A stretch of 64,000 nucleotides of DNA from Nitrospirota bacterium (GTDB taxonomy: Bacteria; Nitrospirota; UBA9217): positions 64,001 through 128,000 of the forward strand of contig CAVVUN010000015.1 of assembly GCA_963751455.1 (NCBI GenBank), given 5' to 3'. Shown here one piece after another: positions 45,267 through 60,328 of the stretch. The notes under the pieces are model-generated. The model worked only from the letters and a program-made list of their open reading frames with translations, had not been told where the DNA came from and did no database searches. Position 1 is the stretch's first letter. The number at the start of each line of letters is the position of its first letter. The position numbers and the translations under genes are program-made.

Positions 45267-46989
45267 ATGTCTCGGAAACTGAAAGAAAAAGCTGATGCCG
45301 TGCTTGCTACCGAGCGCGGTACTATTCATAAAGCGCGCGGGGCCGACGTCAGCATCGCGCTTGCCTACCCGAATACCTATCACGTCGGCATGTCGAATCT
45401 CGGAGTCCATCAGATATACTCGGTTCTGAACGCCCGGCCGGACACGGTCTGCGAACGGGTTTTTTTGCCTGATGATGAAGATATCGAGGAATATCGAAAG
45501 ACGGGTACAAAACTCTTCACGCTTGAGAGCAAGCGGCCCGTAAAGGACTTTGACGTACTCGCCTTTTCGGTCTCTTTTGAACAGGATTACCTGAATATTC
45601 TTCAGATACTCGACCTCTCCGGCATTCCCATCGATAAAAAAGACAGGACAGAGGACGATCCGCTTGTTATGCTCGGGGGCATCTGCTCCTTCTTTAACCC
45701 GGAGCCGCTCGCGGACTTCTTCGACGTGATTCTTGTCGGCGAGGGTGAAGAGATGGCTGGAGAATTCGTCGATGTTTATAGAAAGACCGACTCAAAAAAC
45801 CGGGAGGACGTGCTGCGGGCTGCAAGCATTGTTCCTGGTGTTTATGTTCCGGATTTTTATGATGTCATCTACGAAGGAAATATAATCAGAGCGGAAGAAA
45901 CGTGAAGCTTCGGCCCCTGACAGCATCACAAAACGCACTGTCAAGGACTTCAACCGGACGCCGGCGGCCAGCGTGATCCTGACTCCTGACACCGAATTCA
46001 GCGACATGTATCTTTCTGAGATAACGCGCGGATGCGGACGGCATTGCCGTTTTTGCATGGCAGGATACATCTATCTTCCTCCCCGGAATCTGAATATTGA
46101 GAGAGCAAAAGAACAAGCGGGAAAGGCAGACGATATTTGCGGGAAAATCGGCCTTGTTGGCGCGGCGCTGTCGGATTATCCAGACATAGTCGAGATGTGC
46201 GCCGCGATAGAGGGAGGGGTTTCAGTTTCGTCGCTCAGGGCGGATTCCGTGGGCGAGGCGTTGATTGACCGGCTGGCAAAGAGCGGTCATAAGACCATCT
46301 CCATAGCGCCGGAGGCGGGATCGGAACGGCTCAGGAAAGTGATCAACAAGGGAGTAACCGAGGAAGATATTCTTCGGGCTGCGGACATGATCTTCAGACA
46401 CGGCATACCAAACTTGAAGCTCTATTTCATTCTGGGCCTGCCCACCGAGACGCAGGAAGACGTAGAGGCAATCGGTTCGCTGGCCCGTAAAGTTAGGGAA
46501 GTTCAGCTCAAGCATGCAAGAGCCGCAGGGAAGATCGGCAGGATTACGCTCTCGGTTAATTCATTCGTTCCAAAGCCGTTTACGCCGTTCCAGTGGGAGC
46601 CCATGGAAGCCGTGGATCTTCTCAACAGGAAGATGCGCTTCCTCAAAAAGCAGGTCCGGAACATAGGCAATATGAATCTGATCCACGATCTTCCAAAATG
46701 GGCATATATCCAGGCGCTGCTTTCCCGCGGCGACCGCCGCGTTGGAGCGCTGATCCGCGTTGCTTTCGAGAAGCAAGGTGACTGGAAAGCAGCCGCTCGC
46801 GAGTTGGGCCTTGACATGGACGCTTACGTTCTGAGACGCCGCGATTTCAGCGAGGCGCTGCCCTGGGATTTTATTGACATCGGTGTGAGGAAAGATTATC
46901 TTAGAAACGAATACGAGCGGGCGCTGGAAGGCAAATTCACGCCGGTCTGCAGAGTAGGCTCGTGCAAGACGTGCGGAGTGTGTAAATAA
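45267..46989 (+). CDS. Radical SAM protein (B12-binding-like N-terminus), one frameshift at ~45890
   Basis: YPNTYHVGMSNLG...CERVF; EITRGCGRHCRFC; APEAGSERLR; FVPKPFTPFQW. Confidence 0.85.
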
Positions 46990-47031
46990 AATGGTTCTTA
47001 ATGAGCCCGATTTTGATAGATTCGTAAATGA

Positions 47032-47121
47032 TCTCTGTCTCACACAAAGACACGAAGGCACGAAGAAAAAATGAATTTCAGGTCTGTTCTCTGTGGCTTT
47101 GTGACTTCGTGTGAAAACAGA
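47032..47121. repeat. Periodic IR element, CACGAAG family
   Basis: TCTGTCTCACACAAAGACACGAAGGCACGAAG ... CTTTGTGACTTCGTGTGAAAACAGA. Confidence 0.78.
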
Positions 47122-47172
47122 TTTCTTAAGATTTTTTATCAAAATTGAAATCAGCATCGATGGGTCATATAC

Positions 47173-47928
47173 ATGAAAGAGGATGCACATCAGGTTGGAA
47201 TAAGCATAGCGATTCCCGCGCTCGACAAACTGGGCATGATACAATATGCCTTTACGACCCGGCAGAACGGCCTTGGAGCACGGATCCACGGGATAAAACA
47301 GGCTGACGATTGGAAGCCGGTTGCGGAGCAGTTCGGCATCAATTCGGACCGGCTGGTTACCGTAAACCAGGTTCACGGAGAGACGGTCGTTCACGTTGAA
47401 GGCTCCAACTATAAAAGCATGCGGTCCACGGAAGCAGATGCGATTATCACCGGTGAACGTGGACTTGCGATCGGCATTGAAACAGCCGACTGTGTACCGG
47501 TCCTGCTCGTCGATCCGGTAAAACCGGCGGTCGGCGCTGTTCATGCCGGCTGGCGAAGCACTGTCGGGAAGATCGTGCAGAAGGCCGTCGTAAAGATGCA
47601 GAACGAGTTCGGCTCCGATCCTGAGCGGATCATTGCGGCAATCGGACCGGCAATTTGTCCCGAGTGCTATGAGGTGGATGAGCCAGTGATGGGGCCGTTA
47701 AGGGAAACCTTTTCATTTTGGGAAGAAATCGCGTCATCTCGCTGGAATGGCCGTTGGAGTCTGGATTTAGCTAAATTAAACCGGATTGAGCTTATACAAG
47801 CAGGGCTCTCCGAAATCAACGTTTATTCCTTCGGATTGTGCACCTGCTGCATGTCGGACTTGTTTTATTCATTCAGGCGCGAAGGCCGGACCGGCAGGAT
47901 GCTGTCGGTGGTGATGATAAAATCTTAA
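47173..47928 (+). CDS. pgeF: Peptidoglycan editing factor / purine nucleoside phosphorylase PgeF (YfiH)
   Basis: QVHG, TADCVPVL, HAGWR, IGPAI, FYSFRRE. Confidence 0.92.
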   Translation: MKEDAHQVGISIAIPALDKLGMIQYAFTTRQNGLGARIHGIKQADDWKPVAEQFGINSDRLVTVNQVHGETVVHVEGSNYKSMRSTEADAIITGERGLAIGIETADCVPVLLVDPVKPAVGAVHAGWRSTVGKIVQKAVVKMQNEFGSDPERIIAAIGPAICPECYEVDEPVMGPLRETFSFWEEIASSRWNGRWSLDLAKLNRIELIQAGLSEINVYSFGLCTCCMSDLFYSFRREGRTGRMLSVVMIKS

Positions 47929-47937
47929 AGCCTCTTT

Positions 47938-48038
47938 TCTCGCAAAGGCGCAATGGTCGCAAAGAAAAGCAAAAGAAATGGATCTTTATAAAATATCTTT
48001 AAAAGTCTTTCTTGACGTTCTTTGCGAGCTTTGCGAGA
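47938..48038. repeat. Periodic IR element, CGCAAAG family
   Basis: TCTCGCAAAGGCGCAATGGTCGCAAAG ... CTTTGCGAGCTTTGCGAGA. Confidence 0.72.
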
Positions 48039-48049
48039 GATGAATTTTT

Positions 48050-48763
48050 ATGTCGATAGCGGACAACCTCAAGACGGTAACAGACAGGATCGCATCGGCA
48101 GCCAGGCGCTCAGGCCGGGACCCCTCGTCCGTGAAGCTGGTTGTGGTTACCAAGACTGTTGATGTTGACAGGATCCGCGAGGCAGTAGCAGCAGGTGGCA
48201 TGCTCCTGGGTGAAAACCGTGTCCAGGAAGCAAAGGACAAGATCGAAAAACTCGGACGGCTTGCCTCCTGGCACCTGATCGGGCATCTCCAGACGAACAA
48301 GGCAAAGTATGCGGTAAAGCTCTTTGACGTGATTCATTCCGTTGACAATATCGGCCTGGCTAAGGAAATAGACGTGCAAGCGGCCAGGATAAACAAGGTC
48401 CAGGATGTCCTGATCGAGATAAGCATTGCCGGAGAGGCGAGTAAGGCGGGGGTGGCGGCAGACCAGGCGCTGTACCTGGTGGCAGAAGCCGCAAAACTGA
48501 AGCACATTTCTATCAAGGGCTTAATGACCATGCCGCCCTTTTCGGACAACCCGGAAAACTCGCGTCCGTATTTCAGGAAATTGAAAGAATTGACAAGGCA
48601 GATCGGGAAAGAGAATCTCCCGGGTGTTTCCATGGATGAGCTTTCAATGGGAATGAGCGGCGATTTCGAGGTCGCCATAGAAGAAGGGGCGACCTTGGTG
48701 CGCGTGGGTACGGCGATATTTGGGGAGAGGTCAGGACATATGCAAAGTGAAAATTGCATCTAA
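48050..48763 (+). CDS. yggS: PLP homeostasis protein YggS
   Basis: VVVTK, GENRVQE, WHLIGHLQTNK, LSMGMSGDF, VRVGTAIFG. Confidence 0.96.
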   Translation: MSIADNLKTVTDRIASAARRSGRDPSSVKLVVVTKTVDVDRIREAVAAGGMLLGENRVQEAKDKIEKLGRLASWHLIGHLQTNKAKYAVKLFDVIHSVDNIGLAKEIDVQAARINKVQDVLIEISIAGEASKAGVAADQALYLVAEAAKLKHISIKGLMTMPPFSDNPENSRPYFRKLKELTRQIGKENLPGVSMDELSMGMSGDFEVAIEEGATLVRVGTAIFGERSGHMQSENCI

Positions 48764-48907
48764 AACCGTCTCTGTCTCACACAAAGACACTAAGGCACGA
48801 AGGGATGCCAGAAACAAATTATTTTCTTTGTGTCTTCGTGGCTCCGTGTGAATACCATATTTTGATTCATCTTTTCAATTTGCACTTTGCGATCTGCTAT
48901 TTGCAAT
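48740..48907. repeat. 7-mer IR element with a nested CACGAAG-family element (48769-48851)
   Basis: Outer ATGCAAAGTGAAAATTGCA / TTTTCAATTTGCACTTTGC..TTTGCAAT; inner element starts almost identically to 47032. Confidence 0.7.
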
Positions 48908-48931
48908 AAAAATGATCTCCGTGGAGGACCT

Positions 48932-49744
48932 ATGTCGTTAGATAAAAAGATCGCATTCCTTGGCGGCGGCAACATGGCGGAAGCCTTGCTTAAAGGCCTG
49001 ATCGCCGCGGGTACGGCCAAACCTGATCAGGTTCTCGTGTCCGATATCTTTCCCGACCGGCTGGAGCATCTGCGGAAGACGTATGGTATTATAATACAAC
49101 GGAACAATATTGATGCTGCCCGCGAGGCCGGGATAGTGCTTCTGAGCGTTAAGCCCCAGGTCATCGAAAAAGTGATGACCGAGATAGCGCCGGCAATGGA
49201 CGATACAAAGCTCGTGATCTCGATTGCCGCCGGAGTAACGATCGGCCGGATGGAAAAGGCGCTTGGGGAGAAAACGCGCGTAGTCCGCGTTATGCCGAAC
49301 ACTCCGGCGCTCGTAATGGCAGGAGCAGCGGGTATCGCAGCGGGAAAGAACGCAAACTCTGACGATATCTCCCTGGTCCAGCTGATATTCAGCTCGGTCG
49401 GGCGGTCCGTGGTCGTAGACGAAAAGCTGATGGATGCGGTTACCGGGCTTTCAGGCAGCGGGCCTGCCTACGTATTTATGATCATTGATGCGCTTTCGGA
49501 TGCCGGGGTAAAGGAAGGGCTCCCTCGCGCCCTGGCTTTAGAACTTGCCGCGCAGACTGTATACGGTTCCGCGAAGATGGTGCTCGAGACGAAAGAGCAT
49601 CCCGGAAAACTGAGGGACATGGTTACCTCACCCGGCGGAACGACCATTGAAGGTTTGCATGCGCTCGAAAAAGGGAAACTGCGCGCCACGCTTATGAACG
49701 CAGTTGAGGCGGCTACGGCAAGGAGCAAGGAACTGGGAAAGTAA
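48932..49744 (+). CDS. proC: Pyrroline-5-carboxylate reductase
   Basis: FLGGGNMA, VKPQ, RVMPNTP, SGSGPAY, VTSPGGTT. Confidence 0.97.
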   Translation: MSLDKKIAFLGGGNMAEALLKGLIAAGTAKPDQVLVSDIFPDRLEHLRKTYGIIIQRNNIDAAREAGIVLLSVKPQVIEKVMTEIAPAMDDTKLVISIAAGVTIGRMEKALGEKTRVVRVMPNTPALVMAGAAGIAAGKNANSDDISLVQLIFSSVGRSVVVDEKLMDAVTGLSGSGPAYVFMIIDALSDAGVKEGLPRALALELAAQTVYGSAKMVLETKEHPGKLRDMVTSPGGTTIEGLHALEKGKLRATLMNAVEAATARSKELGK

Positions 49745-49746
49745 GA

Positions 49747-50293
49747 AACCGACAGACAAGCGACGTGAAGCGACGGAACCGACGTGTAACAGAGAGGCGA
49801 GCATTGGGGAACATTCAGAGCCATAAAGATCTGCACGTATGGCAGGATGCAATGGATGGAGCCATGGAGATTTATGCCATTACCAAAGCATTTCCCCCTG
49901 ACGAGAAGTATTCTCTTGTGGACCAAATCCGGAGATCGTCTCGGTCGGTTGCTGCGAATCTTGCCGAAGCGTGGAGAAAGCGAAGATATGAGGCAGCATT
50001 TAAGAGCAAGTTGAATGATGCAGAAGCAGAAGCGTCCGAAACGCAAACATGGATAGAAGTAGCGCTTCGGTGTTCTTATATTGACAAGCAAACTGCAGAT
50101 AAACTGGATCAGAAATACGAGCATATTCTGACGAGGTTAGTTTCCATGAGTCGGGATGTCGGGAATTGGACGCTGTAATGAAAATCGACAAGTATCGAGT
50201 TGAAGCGACGAAGATTCGACGTAAAGGCGACTGGCTCGCGGCATGTCGTTGTCAGGTCGGTGCAAGTCATCTCTAGTCGATTTTACGTCGGCT
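49747..50293. repeat. CGAC/GTCG periodic IR element enclosing the four-helix-bundle gene
   Basis: CGAC at 49750, 49761, 49771, 49780; CGAC/CGAG at 50186, 50196, 50206, 50217, 50228; GTCG/GTCA at 50245, 50256, 50266, 50276, 50287. Confidence 0.7.
49804..50178 (+). CDS. Four-helix-bundle protein (TIGR02436 / 23S rRNA IVP family, Avd-like)
   Basis: KDLHVWQ.AM...IY.ITK.FP.DEKYSL.DQIRRSSRSVAANLAEA...EASETQTW; TTG start inferred from GAGAGG. Confidence 0.9.
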   Translation: MGNIQSHKDLHVWQDAMDGAMEIYAITKAFPPDEKYSLVDQIRRSSRSVAANLAEAWRKRRYEAAFKSKLNDAEAEASETQTWIEVALRCSYIDKQTADKLDQKYEHILTRLVSMSRDVGNWTL

Positions 50294-50310
50294 TTACAAA
50301 GGGAGGATCA

Positions 50311-50610
50311 ATGTTTGTCTTCGGAAATATAATTTTGGGAATTGCAAAGGTTCTTGATGTTGCATTGAACATCTATCTTTGGGTCATTATTATTCGGGCC
50401 CTTATCTCATGGGTGAATCCTGATCAATTTAATCCCATCGTGCAGTTTCTTCAGCGGTCAACTGAACCGGTGCTTCGTCCGATCAGAAAGCTTGCGCCGC
50501 CTTATAAGGTCGGAATAGATCTATCACCGCTGATCGCGATTCTTATCATTTACTTTTTACAATATGCAGTCGTGAACACACTGTATCGTATTGGCCGCTC
50601 GATGGGGTAG
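50311..50610 (+). CDS. yggT: YggT family membrane protein
   Basis: ALISWVNPD..NPIV.FL...TEPVL.PIR...IDLSPLI. Confidence 0.93.
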   Translation: MFVFGNIILGIAKVLDVALNIYLWVIIIRALISWVNPDQFNPIVQFLQRSTEPVLRPIRKLAPPYKVGIDLSPLIAILIIYFLQYAVVNTLYRIGRSMG

Positions 50611-50667
50611 GCCAGGCATAATGGCCGCAAAGGGGCACAAAAAACGCCAGAAAAAGACGAACGGTAG

Positions 50668-50801
50668 TTGGACGCAGATAAAGGCGGAAAAGGCGGATCA
50701 AACGGATTATTGATGAAACAAGTATCCACCTGATTTTTCATAAGGAAAGTTTGATTTGTTATCTGTTTCTATCCGATGTTAACAGATTCTTCCGCGTCCA
50801 A
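50668..50801. repeat. 9-mer periodic IR element (GCGGA/GCAGA type)
   Basis: TTGGACGCAGATAAAGGCGGAAAAGGCGGATCAAACGGAT ... ATCTGTTTCTATCCG...TTCCGCGTCCAA. Confidence 0.6.
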
Positions 50802-50860
50802 ATGCTCTCGATAGGTTTTTTGAGGCTCAAAATAATTGGTTTTTTGCGGGAGGCATAAAT

Positions 50861-51340
50861 ATGAACATTACTCCGCTCGATATACAGCAGAAGCGGTTTC
50901 ATATGGGCTTTCGAGGTTACGAACGAAGCGAGGTGGATTCCTTTCTCGATATGGTACGCGAGGAAATGGAGGCTCTGCTTCGCGAAGTCACGGAGCTGCG
51001 CGAGTTCCAGCAGACCTATGAAACACGAATGCAAGAGCTGAACCAGCGGGAAGAGACGGTCAAGAACACAATGATCATGACTCAAAAGCTTGCGGAAGAC
51101 CTCAAGGAAAACGCTCGCAAGGAAGCGGCTCTGATCGTAAAAGATTCGGAACTCCGCAGCCAGCACATAACAGGCAACGCGCAGCAGGAGAAGGTGAAGC
51201 TGGAGTTCGAGATACAGGAGCTGAAGCGGCGGAAGCATCATTTTCTGCAGGACATCAAAAAAGTCATCGAGATGCACCTTGAGATGACGAAGTTTGAGGA
51301 AGGCGGCGATGAGACCCGCGAAGAAACCGCCAAGGGGTAA
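50861..51340 (+). CDS. divIVA: DivIVA domain protein
   Basis: ITPLDIQQKRF...FRGY...EVDSFL followed by a coiled coil. Confidence 0.92.
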   Translation: MNITPLDIQQKRFHMGFRGYERSEVDSFLDMVREEMEALLREVTELREFQQTYETRMQELNQREETVKNTMIMTQKLAEDLKENARKEAALIVKDSELRSQHITGNAQQEKVKLEFEIQELKRRKHHFLQDIKKVIEMHLEMTKFEEGGDETREETAKG

Positions 51341-51620
51341 GGCAAAAGCGGCAGCAGCCACTTTGTCGGTACGCATACAGCCGCGGGCGTCGAAGAACGA
51401 GGTCGTCAGCAGGGAAGGCGGCGTCAAGATCAGGCTCACTGCTCCGCCCGTTGACGGCGCGGCAAACGAGGCTTTGGTCCGGTTTTTGGCTGATACTCTT
51501 TGCGTATCAAAATCCCAGGTCGAGATCGTCTCGGGGCACACGGCGAGGGACAAAGTTGTCAAAATCAGCGGTATCGACAAGACCGCTGCGGAAACGATCT
51601 TGAATAAGGCAGCGAAATAG
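51309..51620 (+). CDS. DUF167 / YggU family protein
   Basis: VRIQPRAS, APPVDGAAN, VSGHTARDK. Confidence 0.9.
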   Translation: MRPAKKPPRGKAKAAAATLSVRIQPRASKNEVVSREGGVKIRLTAPPVDGAANEALVRFLADTLCVSKSQVEIVSGHTARDKVVKISGIDKTAAETILNKAAK

Positions 51621-51676
51621 GTTATTATAAATTGTATTTTACAATGGCTATGAGCAGAGGGCTAGAAAGAATGTTC

Positions 51677-51790
51677 ACCGCTAAGAACGCAAAGGACGCG
51701 AAGGAAGGCAAAGGGCTTTGATCCTGGGTTTTGAAACCCAAAGAAAAGATTCTGATTCTGGTTTCCTGGCGACCTTCGCGCCTTCGCGGT
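51677..51790. repeat. Periodic IR element, CGCGAAGG family
   Basis: ACCGCTAAGAACGCAAAGGACGCGAAGGAAGGCAAA ... GCGACCTTCGCGCCTTCGCGGT; right arm matches 1560-1581. Confidence 0.8.
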
Positions 51791-51844
51791 AATCACGTTA
51801 GGTTTTAGCTGTTTTCTCTGTTTTAATTTAATACTTCTTCAAAA

Positions 51845-52199
51845 GGGGGCGACAGGCTTCGACGGGGACACAGAGGTCAGGAGTTGCATGCCGAGGTGCC
51901 ATGGGGTCTCGTTAAACACATGGCAAAATAGAACTGCCAATAACGAACTGGCATACGCAGCCTAATTAACTAGGTCGCGCGTCTCCCGGCTGCCGCCTGA
52001 GCGGCCGAAGGGATGTCACAATTCGGGCTGGTCTTCCTGTTATGTCCGGGGCTGGAAGATAAGATAATCCGGGCTGGCCGATTCCGGAGCTTTCCCCGAG
52101 GCGACTGAAAAGGCGAGAGCTTTAAACGAGGGGAAAAGCATGTATGAGCTTCTGTCTGACGGTTTTCGGACGTGGGTTCGAATCCCACCGCCTCCACCA
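51845..52199 (+). ncRNA. ssrA: tmRNA
   Basis: 5' GGGGGCG..TTCGAC; T-arm GGTTCGAATCC; CGCCTCC-ACCA 3' end; tag reading frame ANNELAYAA* at 51936-51965. Confidence 0.96.
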
Positions 52200-52239
52200 A
52201 TTATAATCCAGTAAAATCCAGCAAAGTCGAATGTACTGC

Positions 52240-52277
52240 AAAAGCCCCTCTAAACAACAGGGGGGCTTTTTCTTTTT
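52240..52277 (+). terminator. Intrinsic terminator after ssrA
   Basis: AAAAGCCCC...GGGGCTTTT followed by T-rich tail. Confidence 0.65.
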
Positions 52278-52413
52278 CCGTTGTTCCACCTATCCATGGA
52301 TAGGCTCCTTCTTGACGCAGTCTCATCTCCCTAATACTGCTTGCAAAGAACATAAAGTAAGATATAGCTGACCTGCAGAATATCCCCTGTTTCTTTTCGA
52401 CAGCGGATACGCG

Positions 52414-53511
52414 CTATCTTCCAGAATTCAAACGCAAAATTTGATCAAGAAAAATTGCAGCCGACTTGTTCCAGGAATATCGCTCAACCTGCCTTTTTCC
52501 TTTAACAATCAGCTCTTCTCTCAATGAGCCATTATCGGACAGAGCAACAATTGCATCTGCAAATTCCTTTTCATTATCGGGATTAATATAGAGAACCCCG
52601 TCACCGCAGACTTCTGGAATTGAGGAATAAGGTGTTGTAATTACCGGGCATCCAACATTCATTGCCTCTACGGGAGGCAGACCGAATCCTTCATAATATG
52701 AAGGATAGATCAGTCCCTTTGCATTTCTCATCAATGAGATCATTTCCTGATCGGTTACATAGTCGAGTTCTCGTACAATCCCGAGGGCTACCGCCGGAGC
52801 CGTCATTTTTTTAAATTCTTCACGAATATCCGATTTTACTCCAGTTAAATATAATTTACTGGTAATCTTCTTTTCACGATGAAGTTCCAAAAAGACCTTA
52901 ATTAGCGGGGCGAGCCCTTTGCGTCGATCATACCCGCCCGGGTATAGAAAATAATCTTCAACCCTGCCAATGTCGTATATCGGATCATATTTCTCAGGTA
53001 CCAGGGTGGGTGCGTTGTAAATAACTATGGGTTCTGAATGGACCTTGAAATACTTGATAATGTCTTTTTTTGAATATTCAGAAACGGTAAAAACTATATT
53101 CGAACGGTCTATATCGTTTTGACGCCTTTTTTTGTATCGGTTCAATTTGGCGGAGGTCTTGATTAAATTCGGAACAATCATGGGCAATACATCATGCAAC
53201 GTCATTACTATATTATGGTTGGTATAAATTTTCGGTATCATCCCGTTTGCGGGAAAGTGAACGGGGGAACTGGAATGGGCATTTAAATATACGTTATATA
53301 GAATAAATCGCCATACATTTCTATGCAACTTCGGCTTCCAGGTTACAAGATCAAAATTCTCAGGCAATATGGTCGCTAAGGGTTTCCTCGCAATACCGAC
53401 AAATTTTAAGTCAGGCATCGCCTCCTGGCATGCTTTATAAAGACAAAGAGTTGTCTTTACCATTCCTCTCGGTGCATTTTTAAAATCTTCTGCATCGAAA
53501 ATTATTTTCAT
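52414..53511 (-). CDS. Glycosyltransferase family 4 (GT-B)
   Basis: TLHDVLP, TVSEYSK, YPSYYEGFGLPPVEAM, YSWNKSA. Confidence 0.92.
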   Translation of the reverse strand: MKIIFDAEDFKNAPRGMVKTTLCLYKACQEAMPDLKFVGIARKPLATILPENFDLVTWKPKLHRNVWRFILYNVYLNAHSSSPVHFPANGMIPKIYTNHNIVMTLHDVLPMIVPNLIKTSAKLNRYKKRRQNDIDRSNIVFTVSEYSKKDIIKYFKVHSEPIVIYNAPTLVPEKYDPIYDIGRVEDYFLYPGGYDRRKGLAPLIKVFLELHREKKITSKLYLTGVKSDIREEFKKMTAPAVALGIVRELDYVTDQEMISLMRNAKGLIYPSYYEGFGLPPVEAMNVGCPVITTPYSSIPEVCGDGVLYINPDNEKEFADAIVALSDNGSLREELIVKGKRQVERYSWNKSAAIFLDQILRLNSGR

Positions 53512-53917: not shown

Positions 53918-56900
53918 TCAATGGTGATCAGATTGATCCACTGCTAAAGAGACAGAAGCTGTGCCATGTAATAATGCAGAATAAGTAACAACACCTGATA
54001 ATGGCATGCTTCCTATAAACCAGGGCCATTTTGACCAACCGTCGGTCAATCCCACCCACCATCTCCCATTTATATTGTGATTCCATATATCATGTAAAAC
54101 AGCTAGGGCATTTTGACCAGGAATGAAATTCGCAAGAAAACTAACAGGACCTCCTTCTTTTAAAGGCCACAGATAAAAAGGTACTCCACTTCCTCTATTT
54201 GAAAATCCCCAATTCATCATTGTGGTCCAGGTTACTGCCTCATCGTTCAGTTTAGGAGAAGCCCCGAGACCTGGAAGTGGATTTGGACCCTGCCCATTGC
54301 AATCATTACAGCCTGGCACATCAGTTAATGAGTTCTGATAAATCAATTCAGCGCCACTACTCAGGGCAGACATATAGAAACCATTCCAGAATTTGCCGCC
54401 CTGCGCGTGAGCAGATGCGCCACCAACAAGACCTGACGCAGCAACCTGTCCTGTATAACCTGCAATACTGTCAGTTTCCCAGTCCATGATATATGAACTT
54501 GCCATAGATGTTCCCCATGAAATTGCTGCAGATTTCAGCATATCATTGAAATGTCCTCCATAAGCGTATGCTTCATACGCACCAATTACTGCTGAACCAG
54601 CGCCATAGTACTCATCTCCTATATAACTAGCAGCTATATGTATCGCAGCATTATAATATCGATTATTGAAGTACTTCGCGTGTTTATTCTGCCTCCTATG
54701 CCCGGTTGGATCCGCATAGTTGACTGGATTGTTCCCCACATAAGAGTATCTGTTAAGTGATTGCGGATTAGTGAAATTAGGTACAATTGTATCCGCGGTG
54801 ATAAATCTACCGAGAACAGGATTATAGTACCGCGCATTGTAGTAGTACAACCCTGTATCTGCATCGAGTTCTTGTGACGTGTACTTGTGCGCCATTGATA
54901 CCGATCCAGTGTCCATACTGGTTGCCCCGAATGGCATGTATTGTATTTCTTCCATTTTATTGCCATTTCCGTTGGTTATCACCCTGTTGCTTCCCAGATG
55001 GTCTTGGTGGTAGTACATGACCTCAGAGCTCACCTTGTTAGCTACAAGGACTCCTCCTGCAAAAATATATTTCGAGCAAATGCCTGCTTTGCACTCGTAG
55101 TGCTTGCCGATATAAATATTTGTCCCGGTTGGTGCGGCCTTTTTTACTCGCTGGCCGTTGTAGTCGTATGTAAAGTTAATTGTCTTTCCATAGGCAGTGA
55201 CGCTCTTAGGCATGTTGTCTTCGTTATATACAATCATGCGGGTGCCGTCCGTGAGCATGTTGCCGTTGGGGTCGTAGTTGTAGGTCTTGCCATCGGGAAG
55301 TGTGGTTCTTACCGCATGAGGCTTGAGGCCGGTCTGGTCGTAGGTGTACGTTAGGCCCTCTTTTGAAGTGATGTTTCCGATTTGATCGTAATCATACGAC
55401 AGCGTTCCGTAGCTCGTGCTCTGGGCCTGCCACAAACGGTTCAGCTCGTCATACAGGAAAGCCTGAGAGCGACTTGAATCTATCGCATCAGTCATGGTTG
55501 AGATGTTGCCTAAATTGTCATATACATACGTCAGGTTCAAAAGCTGAGGCTCCGATGGCTTTCCAACCTGGATTGATTTAAGTCGATTGTTTCCGGGATA
55601 GTACTCAAAGGTTGTGTTAACGCCGTTGCCATAACTTAATATTCGTGCCTGTCCGAGGGGGTTATACTCATAATATTGCGCATAGGGAGTAGCATTGCTA
55701 CCTGTCACCACAGAAAGGACTTCCGCATCGTAAATATACGAAACAATCTCCTGATCTGGATATTTTATACTTGTTACTCTGTCAAGGCTATCGTAGCCGT
55801 ACTCCGTGGTATAGTTCACAGCAGTAATCGTCTTGACGGTCTTTTTTGGCCTTCCTTTAATGTCATAATGGTACACTATCTGGCCGGAACCGTCCGTAAC
55901 CTTTGAAAGCCTGCCCTTGCTGTAAGTGGACGTCGGCAGATCATAGTAATATGTGACCGGGACTGGGGCGAGCTTGTTCGTCACTCTGTTCAGCTTGTCG
56001 TAAATGAAACTGATAGTCTGCCCCTTGGCGTCTTTTTGGGATATTACATTGCCGTTAGCGTCATATTGATAGGTCCAGTTGCCGGCCTCGCCGTCATCCG
56101 TCGCGCTGCTCATGTCGGGATCATGCATAAAGGTTTTCCTGCTGAGTGTGTCATAGCGCATTCGGGTCTCATTCCCTGCGGCATCGGTCACCTTCAAAAG
56201 GTTTCCGAGCACATCGTACTGATAAGTAGTCGTGGCATAAGGGCTCTCTATGCCTGTTGTGCAGTCGTTGAAAGTGCCTAAATATTCTTCGACCTTGGCT
56301 AACCGACCGAGGGTGTCCCTAGTTTCCCGCCTTCGGTGACCGTTTGCATCGATAGATACAGTTACACCGTCATTATAGCAGCCAAGGGTCACCGTTCCAT
56401 CCGGCTCGCTGACCCGAACATTACGGCCAAGGGCATCATAAGTGAATGTTTTCCAGCTAACAATATCGTCGATTCCCTCGAAATAGGGCAGAGAAGTTTG
56501 CAAAACAGTTCCCGTGGCATTATATTTCGTCACGGATCTAATAGTTTTTGTATCAGGACCGGTCTTTTCCACTGCGGCTGTTCTACCCATGCCGTCGAAG
56601 TATGACCAGGAAAAGAGCCCGGTTGATGTGTCTATCCTGACATGCTGCTCCCCGACAATGCCAAAATCAATATACGACCGGTTGATCCATCCTCCATCCG
56701 GCGTTGTGGTTTTTGTTGGACGTCCGAATACATCGTATTGTGACGTGGTCACAGCGCCGTTCGGATCGGTAATTTTCCTTACTTGCCCGTAAAGGCCGTT
56801 ATCCGAAGCAACCCCGTCTATGCCATAGTACTGGGTCAGGGTAGTATGCCCGAGCGGATTTTTCGCAGTCGTGGAAAATGTGTACGAATTGTCGTACATA

Positions 56901-59900
56901 AAGGTTGAAATATTTCCCTTCGGGTCCCGTGTGCAGGCGAGATTTCCGTAGGCGTCGTACGCCATGCGCACTGCCGGGTTCGTTCCTCCATCGAGCCAGC
57001 GTACAATACGAGTGAGATTGCCTTTCGTGGGCGGCTGGTTTTCGGGAGTCATTGCAGCAAACGTGCAGTCCACAGGCTCGTCATAATAGAATGTAGTTTC
57101 AGCCGTTTTGATGGTAGCGGTCGTTCCGCTATATATGGTCTCACTCGCAGGCAGGCTAAGAATCCATTTATCTGTATTCGGGAAATAGGTCCTTTCAACT
57201 CTACGGTCGTCAGTTGCATCGGTCACATCACCATAATGCTCTTCGCGCGTCACGTTGCCGTATGCATCGTAGGCGTAAATGCTCTTTGTCTCTCTGGTAC
57301 AAGCGTCGCCGTCGCAAAGATATGAATGGACCTCCTCCGGCGGATTGAAATAGGGCGTTCCGCTGCCGGCACTATATAGCGTTGTTGTTTTAGAATATTC
57401 CCGGCCTTGTGCATCGGTCAGGCGAGAATAGTAAGGCTTGCCTTTCATATAACCGTCATTGCCGGAAGGGTTGTCTACATAAAGCGATGGGTTTGCTATA
57501 TCGACTGTACCGGTTACATTGCCGCGGTGGAACCATGTCTCTGTTACGAGTTGCTCGCCGTCCGGCCCGGCTGGCCCGGTGACCGTCACGTGATTAAAGC
57601 CACGGAATTCACGTTCGCCGATATGATAGTACCCGCCGGAATAATTATACAGAGTGGTCGATTCTATCCCCATACATAGAGACGTTGTAGAATCATAATT
57701 TTCGCAGTTTTTAATGACGCTGAGCGTCTGTATGGGAAAGGGGAGCTGTGTGTTATTATATTGTGAAGAAGGCTTATATGTTATATTTGTATTCCCACCT
57801 ATACCGTTCAGAATATCTGAGACCATATTTACTGCATTACCTGACCCTACAGCTACAGATAGACTCGTATCTATGTTTATATGACCGACGTCGATTTTAC
57901 CGTCGCCGTTAAAATCTCCAAAATTGTACCTGCTTGCATCACCCCACCCCATGCTCCCCCACGGATAGCGGGCAGTAAATCGAGAACCCTTGGAAAAAAT
58001 AACCGATAACGTGCCGTCATTGATGTTAATGTTGAGCACATCACTCCTGCCATCTCCGTTGAAATCCCCCAATTTTATACGCCATGGGTCACCCCATCCA
58101 ACACCACCCCACTCAGCCGCCGGCTCAAACCCCGTTCCGTTCGATACGGCCACCAACAACGATCCGTTCACCTCGTCGATGTTAATAAATAGCACGTCCG
58201 TTTTGCCATCGCCATTAAAATCGCCCAACATGTGCCGTTCCGGATCGCCCCAGCCAGCATGTCCCCATGGTTGAGACGTTGATGAAGTTGTGAAACCGGT
58301 ACCCGTGGACAGAGCTACTGTCAAGGGACCATTCATTGACGGCTCGTCCAGATTTATGAAGAGCACATCTGTCTTACCATCCCCGTTGAAATCGCCCAGC
58401 ATGTGCCGTTCCGGATCGCCCCAGCCAGCATGCCCCCATGGTTGAGGTGTTGATGAAGTGGTAAAACTGGTCCCTGTCGACAGAGCCACTGTTAACGTGC
58501 CATCCATATTGATGAAGAGCACATCGGTCTTCCCGTCTCCGTTAAAGTCGCCCAGCATATGCCGTATCGGATCGCCCCAGCCGGCATGCCCCCACGGTTG
58601 AGATGTTGACGAAGTGGTAAAATTAGCGCCTGTGGAAAGAGCCACTGTTAAGGGACCATTCATTGACGGCTCATCCAGATTTATAAAGAGCACATCAGTT
58701 TTCCCGTCCCCGTCAAAGTCGCCCAGCATATGCCGTATCGGATCGCCCCAGCCGGCATGCCCCCACGGTTGAGATGTTGACGAAGTGGTAAAATTAGCGC
58801 CTGTGGAAAGAGCCACGGTTAAGGGACCATTCATTGACGGCTCATCCAGATTTATAAAGAGCACATCAGTTTTCCCGTCCCCGTCAAAGTCGCCCAGCAT
58901 ATGCCGTATCGGATCGCCCCAGCCTATTTCTCCCCAAGAGGTGGCCGGATCGAAGGAAGTATTTTCATCTGAATATTTTATGTTGATGGCGGGTAGAGCA
59001 CTGCCTTCGGTAATAGTCCCATTATCAAGAGAGGCATCTTTCCCATATTGCTGCACGGCTGACAGGATAGAGCGTTCGGTCGATGTACTAGGGGAATACG
59101 CTAATTTATACGCCCGGACGCGATTGCCACTGGCAATAACATCTATTGTTTTCAACCTGAAGGCAGTTCTTACCCGAAAATTAACGGTGTACATATCCGG
59201 AGCGTCGGTACGGGATTCAAGATGGAATTTGACGTAATTCGTAGTCGGTGTTCCATCCGTATTGGCTGTATAAGATATTTGATTAAGATAAATTTGTCCT
59301 TCATAAGCATGGCCCTGTACTTCCTTTGCATATGAGAACGTCATATAGTTGCCGTTTGTGTCTTCGACCGTATCCAAGCACCATTTGAAGACTCTGTTCC
59401 CGTTCGAAGGGTCATCTTGTTTAGGCGTAGCAGTTCCATACGCAGTTTTTCCAAAAGTAAACTTTGTTCCTTTTTTATCAAATACCTCCCAGTAATTCGG
59501 GCTGCCGTCTAGATTGACAATTTTCATTACTTTAAAAAAGACCCCCTCTATTTTTGCCCGATATTCGTTTTCGTTTACATTTACCAAATCCATGGTCGCG
59601 CCGGCGACGTTCAAGATATATCCATCAGTTTCGGTGTAAGACAAGCCATGTTTAGCGCTTCGCTCAATGGACCCTACTTCAAGTTCCCATCCGAACCCAA
59701 CCCAACTGTCTCCATTATTGCTTCTATATGTCAATGCAAGACCCGGATCCATGCCTTTTCGGCCGAAGGGCACCTCAATCGGGATCGAGTAAGACATGGT
59801 TCCGGTCGAAAGATCGGGCATAACTGTTCCACTGCCCGCGCCTCCGCTTAATCCAACTTTATATTTTGGTGCAGACTGGCTGCTGCCCGTATCATTGGCA

Positions 59901-59995
59901 AAAGCAGGTCTAAATAAGACTGCGATCAGAGAACACAAGCAGATTGAAAGAAAGACTTTAATCCAATCATTTACGTGAAAGAAAATGCGCCACAT
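53918..59995 (-). CDS. Secreted SpvB + FG-GAP + YD/Rhs-repeat protein (TcB/TcC-like shell), 2025 aa
   Basis: Signal peptide ending AFA; YSIPIEVP.GR.G..P.LAL.Y SpvB start; seven GDF(D/N)GDG repeats; YD repeats; Rhs core GLYYYNARYYNPVLGRF...NPVNYADPTGH; GGAGGA RBS before 59995. Confidence 0.92.
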   Translation of the reverse strand: MWRIFFHVNDWIKVFLSICLCSLIAVLFRPAFANDTGSSQSAPKYKVGLSGGAGSGTVMPDLSTGTMSYSIPIEVPFGRKGMDPGLALTYRSNNGDSWVGFGWELEVGSIERSAKHGLSYTETDGYILNVAGATMDLVNVNENEYRAKIEGVFFKVMKIVNLDGSPNYWEVFDKKGTKFTFGKTAYGTATPKQDDPSNGNRVFKWCLDTVEDTNGNYMTFSYAKEVQGHAYEGQIYLNQISYTANTDGTPTTNYVKFHLESRTDAPDMYTVNFRVRTAFRLKTIDVIASGNRVRAYKLAYSPSTSTERSILSAVQQYGKDASLDNGTITEGSALPAINIKYSDENTSFDPATSWGEIGWGDPIRHMLGDFDGDGKTDVLFINLDEPSMNGPLTVALSTGANFTTSSTSQPWGHAGWGDPIRHMLGDFDGDGKTDVLFINLDEPSMNGPLTVALSTGANFTTSSTSQPWGHAGWGDPIRHMLGDFNGDGKTDVLFINMDGTLTVALSTGTSFTTSSTPQPWGHAGWGDPERHMLGDFNGDGKTDVLFINLDEPSMNGPLTVALSTGTGFTTSSTSQPWGHAGWGDPERHMLGDFNGDGKTDVLFINIDEVNGSLLVAVSNGTGFEPAAEWGGVGWGDPWRIKLGDFNGDGRSDVLNININDGTLSVIFSKGSRFTARYPWGSMGWGDASRYNFGDFNGDGKIDVGHINIDTSLSVAVGSGNAVNMVSDILNGIGGNTNITYKPSSQYNNTQLPFPIQTLSVIKNCENYDSTTSLCMGIESTTLYNYSGGYYHIGEREFRGFNHVTVTGPAGPDGEQLVTETWFHRGNVTGTVDIANPSLYVDNPSGNDGYMKGKPYYSRLTDAQGREYSKTTTLYSAGSGTPYFNPPEEVHSYLCDGDACTRETKSIYAYDAYGNVTREEHYGDVTDATDDRRVERTYFPNTDKWILSLPASETIYSGTTATIKTAETTFYYDEPVDCTFAAMTPENQPPTKGNLTRIVRWLDGGTNPAVRMAYDAYGNLACTRDPKGNISTFMYDNSYTFSTTAKNPLGHTTLTQYYGIDGVASDNGLYGQVRKITDPNGAVTTSQYDVFGRPTKTTTPDGGWINRSYIDFGIVGEQHVRIDTSTGLFSWSYFDGMGRTAAVEKTGPDTKTIRSVTKYNATGTVLQTSLPYFEGIDDIVSWKTFTYDALGRNVRVSEPDGTVTLGCYNDGVTVSIDANGHRRRETRDTLGRLAKVEEYLGTFNDCTTGIESPYATTTYQYDVLGNLLKVTDAAGNETRMRYDTLSRKTFMHDPDMSSATDDGEAGNWTYQYDANGNVISQKDAKGQTISFIYDKLNRVTNKLAPVPVTYYYDLPTSTYSKGRLSKVTDGSGQIVYHYDIKGRPKKTVKTITAVNYTTEYGYDSLDRVTSIKYPDQEIVSYIYDAEVLSVVTGSNATPYAQYYEYNPLGQARILSYGNGVNTTFEYYPGNNRLKSIQVGKPSEPQLLNLTYVYDNLGNISTMTDAIDSSRSQAFLYDELNRLWQAQSTSYGTLSYDYDQIGNITSKEGLTYTYDQTGLKPHAVRTTLPDGKTYNYDPNGNMLTDGTRMIVYNEDNMPKSVTAYGKTINFTYDYNGQRVKKAAPTGTNIYIGKHYECKAGICSKYIFAGGVLVANKVSSEVMYYHQDHLGSNRVITNGNGNKMEEIQYMPFGATSMDTGSVSMAHKYTSQELDADTGLYYYNARYYNPVLGRFITADTIVPNFTNPQSLNRYSYVGNNPVNYADPTGHRRQNKHAKYFNNRYYNAAIHIAASYIGDEYYGAGSAVIGAYEAYAYGGHFNDMLKSAAISWGTSMASSYIMDWETDSIAGYTGQVAASGLVGGASAHAQGGKFWNGFYMSALSSGAELIYQNSLTDVPGCNDCNGQGPNPLPGLGASPKLNDEAVTWTTMMNWGFSNRGSGVPFYLWPLKEGGPVSFLANFIPGQNALAVLHDIWNHNINGRWWVGLTDGWSKWPWFIGSMPLSGVVTYSALLHGTASVSLAVDQSDHH
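58545..58923. repeat. Near-identical 171-bp tandem repeat within the FG-GAP region
   Basis: GCCGTATCGGATCGCCCCAGCC recurs at 58561, 58732, 58903. Confidence 0.9.
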
Positions 59996-60328
59996 ATTAG
60001 TCCTCCCCAAAAATATAAAGTTGTAAACAAAAGCGAAAATATCGGCGAAAGATAGGAATGGTACCAAGATTGAAAACTTCTAAACTCGGCTAGCTGTTTT
60101 ACCTTGATATGGCAAGAAAGAGATACAAGATACTTTAGTTCGAAAAAAGATAACAAAATAAAAAATGCGTGTCAATGAATATTTATGCATAAATTAATAA
60201 TTGAGTGCAACTATGCGCAACTTACTGCGATTCGTTTATGAATTTTTCGGCTTGACTATATTATTAGTATGTAATACTATTTTCGTAGAAAAAATTCTAA
60301 CGCGCTTCACTGATGCAGGAGGTGCACT

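Follow-up and report, generated by a model that had tools for sequence, protein, structure and literature searches.

A probable transposase-free cassette: a four-helix-bundle gene within periodic repeat arms between proC and yggT of a Nitrospirota bacterium

To our knowledge, no function has been assigned to the protein family PF05635 since 1993, and we know of no accepted origin for the short periodic repeats of bacteria. Homing endonuclease elements persist by a cycle in which one site is invaded, the element decays and is lost, and the site is then invaded anew. The described systems nearest to the locus reported here are the ORF-bearing intervening sequences (IVS) of 23S rRNA in Coxiella burnetii and Leptospira, in which a gene of the same protein family lies in the loop of an inverted repeat, spread is patchy and probably horizontal, and the ORF decays; the S23p IVS of Coxiella burnetii has a terminal stem, is cleaved by RNase III and carries short heptamer repeats (GACAGAT) in tandem directly ahead of the start codon (PMC4990558, cited in part). 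IVP genes are also reported in cas loci (PMC3936711, in part), and the rRNA inserts of CPR (bioRxiv 2024.02.27.582315, in part) are relevant to a comparison with homing elements. RAYT/REPIN systems combine a small gene with inverted repeats and many gene-less inverted elements in spacers, RAYT being a single vertical copy (PMC3337134 and PMC3116915, both in part). The heptamer arrays of Xanthomonas and Nostoc (PMC4692102) and of Beggiatoaceae (PMC4679880) are likewise intergenic, of short period and often paired in inverted orientation shortly after a stop codon; neither "helix bundle" nor "S23" occurs in either of these two main texts. Finally, the Avd protein of DGRs is also a four-helix bundle, with a fold akin to that of the pentameric 2GSC/2RLD structures (bioRxiv 2023.10.23.563531, PMC10053308; both in part).

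We analysed a window of 64,000 nucleotides (positions 64,001 to 128,000 of contig CAVVUN010000015.1, assembly GCA_963751455.1), from contig C15 of the source genome, G000; other G-numbers denote genomes of the host family (n=64), and L-numbers denote cassette loci. The gene order on the + strand of the window is pgeF-yggS-proC-[four-helix-bundle gene]-yggT-divIVA, and the cassette consists of an upstream arm (U), the gene, a direct block (D) and an inverted arm (A'):

48932..49744, + strand: proC, left neighbour (TIGR00112, 310 bits); the cassette begins directly after its stop
49745..49800, + strand: upstream arm U, four CGAC units of period 9-11, purine-rich; predicted to pair with A'
49791..49797, + strand: AGAGAGG at the end of U, by its sequence a probable ribosome-binding site
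49804..50178, + strand: four-helix-bundle gene, 124 aa, TIGR02436 / PF05635, E-A-W-R-K-R clade; TTG start, TAA stop
50179..50240, + strand: direct block D, five CGAC-type units oriented as in U; an optional part, seen as a gap against L289
50242..50298, + strand: inverted arm A', five GTCG-type units of period 10-11; stops short of the yggT ribosome-binding site
50311..50610, + strand: yggT, right neighbour (PF02325, 85 bits), with GGGAGG at 50301-50306

HMM matches to the gene and both neighbours bear out the original prediction of a TIGR02436-type gene between proC and yggT. Its four CGAC units before the gene, five after it and five inverted units are also placed correctly, each five being four exact copies and one variant: CGAC starts at 49750, 49761, 49771 and 49780 in U (spacing 11, 10, 9) and at 50186, 50206, 50217 and 50228 in D, with CGAG at 50196, and GTCG starts at 50245, 50256, 50276 and 50287 in A', with GTCA at 50266. 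The start codon is TTG, with ATG at the matching position in the orthologs L289 and G014. A strict 4-mer chain scan misses this locus, and we used a chain statistic scan instead: the locus scores 12, a value of 10 is reached in 0/2000 dinucleotide shuffles, and the top score is shared with a single other locus among 2743 G000 genes with both flanks of at least 50 nt. No Rfam family matched the cassette, no rRNA was matched within 46000-53000 of the window, and scans for promoters and terminators around the cassette stayed near chance level. The cassette resembles the ORF-bearing 23S IVS in its protein family, its inverted-repeat loop, the tandem repeats ahead of the start codon, its patchy and probably horizontal spread and the decay of its ORF, yet it lies between protein-coding genes, has a period of 10 and carries the extra direct block; the two 23S rRNA matches in G000 hold no ORF-sized insert. 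Further along the window, a tmRNA gene (51845-52199; RF00023, 190 bits) is followed by a glycosyltransferase gene and a large RHS gene on the - strand, which is possibly an island integrated at tmRNA; the protein encoded at 53918-60067 (2049 aa) has SpvB, FG-GAP, TcdB-midN and RHS repeats and is polymorphic-toxin-like.

The protein scores far above the cut-offs of its family (TIGR02436, 107 bits against 24; PF05635, 114 bits against 33.8) and below that of the Avd model (NF033474, 30 bits against 80). Its predicted structure has four long helices (pLDDT 82) and is best matched in Foldseek by the five-chain structures 2rld and 2gsc (TM 0.70-0.76), the match to Avd being much weaker (8ub7, E 0.14, TM 0.70). 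The predicted family assignment and relatedness to Avd therefore stand, the latter as the more distant of the two likenesses; with a pI of 6.3 the protein is not basic as Avd is, and no reverse transcriptase lies nearby. The five-chain homologs suggest that the protein may be a homopentamer. The motif RxxxSxxxNxxE is present (R44, S48, N52, E55), and Q41, R44, S48, N52, E55 and E79 are near-invariant (92-100% of 205 family proteins), a set that might constitute an active site or a binding site; in the published IVP motif, G stands first where this set has Q (PMC3936711, in part). A profile search of the protein recognised no catalytic domain; its matches were PF05635 and, weakly, bAvd. The gene is under strong purifying selection, with dN/dS of 0.06-0.08 and an upper 95% bound of at most 0.15. 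Its closest named relatives are from Nitrospirota genomes, and of five pattern matches to the query in viral contigs none was confirmed as a relative.

Periodic flanks are a trait of the whole family. Inverted flanks were found at 78/98 family loci, against 3/178 shifted controls and 31/150 mismatched pairs, a signal that the latter owe to the G-rich unit common to the clade; the query itself gives z 2.9 for inverted and 6.9 for direct repeats. The period is 8 in 65/93 members of the query clade and 7 in 78/100 other family members, under uneven sampling in which clade members are the best matches to the query and the "other" set comes from one host family only; the query has 10, and 84/107 shifted controls are weak. 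In trees of the 193 proteins (FastTree, plus IQ-TREE on a 69-row subset) the query clade is set apart by a branch with support 91 in that subset, the decamer lineage is nested within the octamer clade, and the period changes 20 times, compared with at least 58 in 500 shuffles. The suspected tie between protein lineage and repeat unit is thus supported. Among distant proteins, arms are as similar within a genome (0.178) as between genomes (0.182), and the G-rich octamer recurs in 53/68 clade members outside the host family, across 13 named phyla and at about 55-65% protein identity; host therefore does not explain the period, which follows protein lineage. This tracking could be plain co-inheritance. 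Among 180 upstream arms, four units are most frequent (55 arms) and five occur in 35, giving no support to the five-unit reading that a pentamer might suggest. In these respects the cassettes differ from the heptamer arrays mentioned above: the arrays of this family accompany cargo genes, and the lineage sets the period.

The original prediction placed the gene inside one arm of its element, which holds for the sequence layout but is not favoured for the structure: in the predicted transcript context, U forms about 19 base pairs with A' and D forms none, so that the gene is looped out. The U:A' duplex has z -2.7, while the local hairpin (z -1.65) and the whole cassette (z -1.27, with -0.90 and -0.71 in two further orthologs) fold weakly. 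Against L289, a metagenomic ortholog at the same site (92% identical), the cassette shows one clean 51-column gap, 50190-50240, corresponding to D; A' aligns with the L289 arm free of gaps, with 9 mismatches in about 56 nt, while the silent sites of proC are saturated. D is also missing in G069 (89% identical) and kept in G014 and G066. Since G014 and then G000 branch first in the gene tree, with L289 and G069 as the starred pair, D is probably ancestral here and was lost once. D is collinear with U (unit-shuffle p 0.07), and the best pairwise match over 16 loci is D-U in 7, U-A' in 5 and D-A' in 4. Of the 237 distinct loci whose flanks are complete, 139 have the gene in the loop, 17 a direct block ahead of an inverted arm, 9 more (the query included) direct blocks only and 8 mirror forms, the rest being one-armed, mixed or unscored. 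The gene-in-arm layout is hence real and recurrent, yet a minority of these loci show it, about 1 in 10. The decamer lineage itself has several placements of the gene: in the loop, within the left arm at another site (L304), and after or between hairpins (L290, L291).

Several loci deserve a separate description. An automatic A-g-A-a layout call for L049 looked false on inspection. In L006 (G014), a palindrome-like GGCGGGA...TCCCGC insert lies between D and A', downstream of the pseudogene. The same direct-block layout is present in L039, L052, L056, L320 and L324 of the octamer clade, whose neighbouring ORFs resemble cas1/cas2 by eye, in line with the IVP genes of cas loci. Tandem same-strand copies occur at 1/298 loci and the two differ in their arms: L309:1212-2134 is a pair of four-helix-bundle cassettes, one octamer-armed and one heptamer-armed.

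We then compared this junction across the host family. The proC gene was present in 57/64 genomes and 52 proC-yggT junctions were readable, three having been left out for lack of an adjacent yggT or because the contig ended, and two as partial. The cassette is intact in G000 and G069, a TGA pseudogene in G014, and reduced in G066 by an internal deletion that keeps both ends of the gene; G075, sister of G014, holds a clean gene-less CGAC/GTCG decamer hairpin, the kind of empty site that had been proposed as a search target. Octamer hairpins are found in G046 and G047, and the remaining junctions contain half arms of the octamer clade, unrelated periodic hairpins, other motifs or short spacers. 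The spacer is 0-2 nt in 4/5 outgroup junctions used. A loose "periodic" flag, which carries no control, was raised at 28/51 junctions. The best reading of the series G014, G066 and G075 is that the empty CGAC hairpin at proC-yggT would derive from a cassette whose gene was lost on the spot.

The gene has young silent sites. Four-fold differences between G000 and L289 amount to 15/46 in the gene and 95/142 in proC and yggT (p 6e-5), and those between G000 and G069 to 20/45 and 151/237 (p 0.02); among G000, L289 and G069, the silent sites of the gene are about half as diverged as those of its neighbours (p 6e-5, 0.02, 0.008). The contrast is not significant between G000 and G014 (p 0.12). General constraint on silent sites is not the explanation, because same-site pairs show the reverse trend family-wide: of 90 such pairs, which are not independent of one another, 65 have a gene more diverged than its neighbours and 22 a less diverged one (at p<0.01, 21 and 3). 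Differences in host codon bias can inflate neighbour divergence. In favour of sideways entry, GC3 of the gene keeps to 0.47-0.54 across hosts, against 0.45-0.89 in the neighbouring genes. The sisters G066 and G069 (99/96; neighbours 91-98% identical) share only short patches in this spacer, while their next spacer aligns gap-free. A cheap-gap global alignment of the G066 relic broke into 37 gap blocks and carried no information. Co-conversion of flanks was not found in the one pair compared, G000-L289: silent differences extend as far as the proC stop and begin again at the start of yggT, which would confine the exchange to the spacer. Gene and host trees of four taxa show no conflict of topology, and the case for re-entry therefore rests on branch lengths and the sister pairs. 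The 128 family loci occupy 76 sites, with five same-site pairs elsewhere whose proteins are less than 45% identical. Taken together, these comparisons make repeated sideways entry into the same junctions likely. No target-site duplication was evident by eye in the junction comparisons, the site being old and overwritten, and neither transposition events nor circles were seen.

Gene-less elements were the other half of the original prediction, which took them to be the same kind of element as that around this gene. They are indeed common (321/2776 G000 spacers carry periodic inverted gene-less elements, nine of them in the window, against 0/500 shuffled), but 1/321 is of the CGAC type and 188/321 carry motifs of the arms of another gene family, the nuclease-like GxxExxY genes (PF13366, PD-(D/E)XK family); the motif classes were drawn from the flanks of these genes, each of which sits between periodic inverted arms of its own with units of 8-10 bases (e.g. 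L370, L371, L372). As 6/9 gene-less elements in the window match GxxExxY arms, the four-helix-bundle gene is not the partner of most nearby hairpins, contrary to what had been proposed. Among the 64 genomes, 44 have both families, 13 neither, and 1 and 6 a single one, in a set of related and partly incomplete genomes; this co-occurrence may reflect a permissive host only.

Nested elements were also observed. Between yggS and proC (window 48741-48910), a CACAAAGACAC-type hairpin with GxxExxY-like arms sits inside an older TTGCA heptamer-type pair, the left part of which overlaps the yggS 3' end. At G000:C2:320604-321052, a gene-less CGCAGATT hairpin interrupts a paralog whose arms are of the GGGTCAG type, an element inside an element, and at G000:C9:376666-377001 a paralog lies between two direct arrays of the AACCAAAC type, its ORF running into the repeat at the 3' end.

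The locus is best read as a mobile cassette without a transposase, akin to the intervening sequences of rRNA that carry an ORF. That it behaves selfishly, re-entering junctions and decaying to hairpins, seems to us very probable from the intact, broken and empty forms at one site and the young silent sites, which uphold the proposal of a mobile system. The fuller account, a selfish transposase-free cassette that enters the same junction sideways and whose local decay likely leaves a gene-less hairpin, is favoured by a modest distance. In such a scheme, a four-helix-bundle gene with short-repeat arms would settle at a gene junction, spread sideways between species into the same junction with re-entry limited to the spacer, and decay to leave an empty hairpin. 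Relic hairpins may in addition be targets for a new landing; the various positions of the gene (loop, left arm, right arm, between two hairpins) would then be accounted for. As for the mechanism, it is an even call whether the oligomer reads the units of its own repeat and thereby drives exchange inside the arms; it would bind DNA more likely than RNA, and catalysis could fall to the invariant Q41/R44/S48/N52/E55/E79 set or to a nuclease supplied in trans, for which the GxxExxY protein, often found in the same genomes, is a candidate.

A broader version, which we hold only tentatively, would make the cassettes a bacterial class of homing elements devoid of transposase, intron and known nuclease, in which each lineage reads its own period (7, 8 or 10), the empty periodic hairpins found in gene spacers of many phyla are relics and landing pads, and GxxExxY is a sister cargo or catalytic partner. 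The cassette resembles homing endonuclease elements in going through such a cycle of entry, decay, loss and renewed entry at a single site, in selection maintained despite frequent loss, in ORF-bearing and ORF-less forms sharing a site, and in being younger than its hosts at that site (not significantly for the G014 copy). It differs from them in having no nuclease domain, intron, intein or flank co-conversion, and in using many junctions.

Alternatively, the protein could move gene-less hairpins in trans, as the autonomous member of a pair like RAYT/REPIN. Gene-less CGAC-type elements do occur at unrelated G000 sites (one full hairpin at C11:44707 and about four partial copies in 2776 spacers), where tblastn and blastn detected no gene remnant, and the gene-less hairpin at C2:320604 interrupts a paralog. 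Nevertheless, these CGAC-type copies are few and divergent, most gene-less elements match GxxExxY arms instead, and decay in place is seen directly at proC-yggT and at C3:251780, where half a gene is left between CGAC arms. Nor does the protein contain an HUH domain, the tyrosine transposase of RAYTs, and the arms here are tandem periodic arrays, in several lineages per genome that are replaced sideways. The likeness to RAYT/REPIN that had been drawn is thus not sustained, both an HUH partner and a large gene-less population with this gene's motif being absent, and we consider mobilisation in trans unlikely.

Just as improbable, in our estimation, is an mRNA element, whose arms would pair in the transcript and be cut by RNase III while the protein binds the repeats and tunes the operon, spread being due to ordinary recombination. 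The predicted pairing of U with A', the RNase III gene rnc of G000, the cleaved Coxiella IVS of the same layout (PMC4990558, in part), the rarity of gene-less elements between divergent genes (9/306 vs 283/2161) and the binding of RNA by Avd (bioRxiv 2023.10.23.563531, in part) all fit such a role. However, G-U mismatches on the sense strand are not in excess over A-C mismatches (495 vs 464 in 158 cassettes; 521 vs 482 in gene-less elements), giving no support to the earlier idea that the protein reads repeats at the RNA level. The weak folding of three orthologs, the loss of the gene in most lineages and the lack of a co-converted flank also speak against it. The missing G-U excess and weak folding lean toward DNA as the target, with RNA the less probable one.

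Still less probable is that the arms are by-products of slippage with a passenger gene, the protein ignoring them and unrelated host processes moving the cassette. Arms are degenerate, vary in unit number and grade from decamer into octamer (L116, L117, L135), as slippage would have it, but the G-rich octamer persists with this clade across the 13 named phyla, purines prevail on the strand of the gene in 92% of the 180 upstream arms, and a passenger lost so often would not hold a dN/dS of 0.06. We give slightly less credit yet to an Avd-like action of the protein with a host reverse transcriptase in trans: despite the likeness to the Avd fold and six reverse-transcriptase matches in G000, such enzymes occur in 24/45 genomes with the family and 10/19 without it (p 1.0, in MAGs that often lose such genes), RVT_1 has no match on C15, and the pI is unlike that of Avd.

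The transposase-free cassette, for which we found no description outside rRNA in the literature covered, belongs to a widespread and apparently unpublished type nearest to the ORF-bearing intervening sequences. The locus links PF05635, a family lacking a function, with the short periodic repeats of bacteria. Its single junction offers a natural test set, comprising intact donors of two layouts, a pseudogene, a deletion relic, an empty hairpin and a shift of period from 8 to 10, so that period-specific binding and homing into the empty hairpin are directly testable. If the cassette reading is true, it would be a minimal insertion system of about 550 bases that lands between genes; if the broader homing-class reading also is, it would account for both the long-unexplained heptamer and octamer repeats and the orphan IVS protein.
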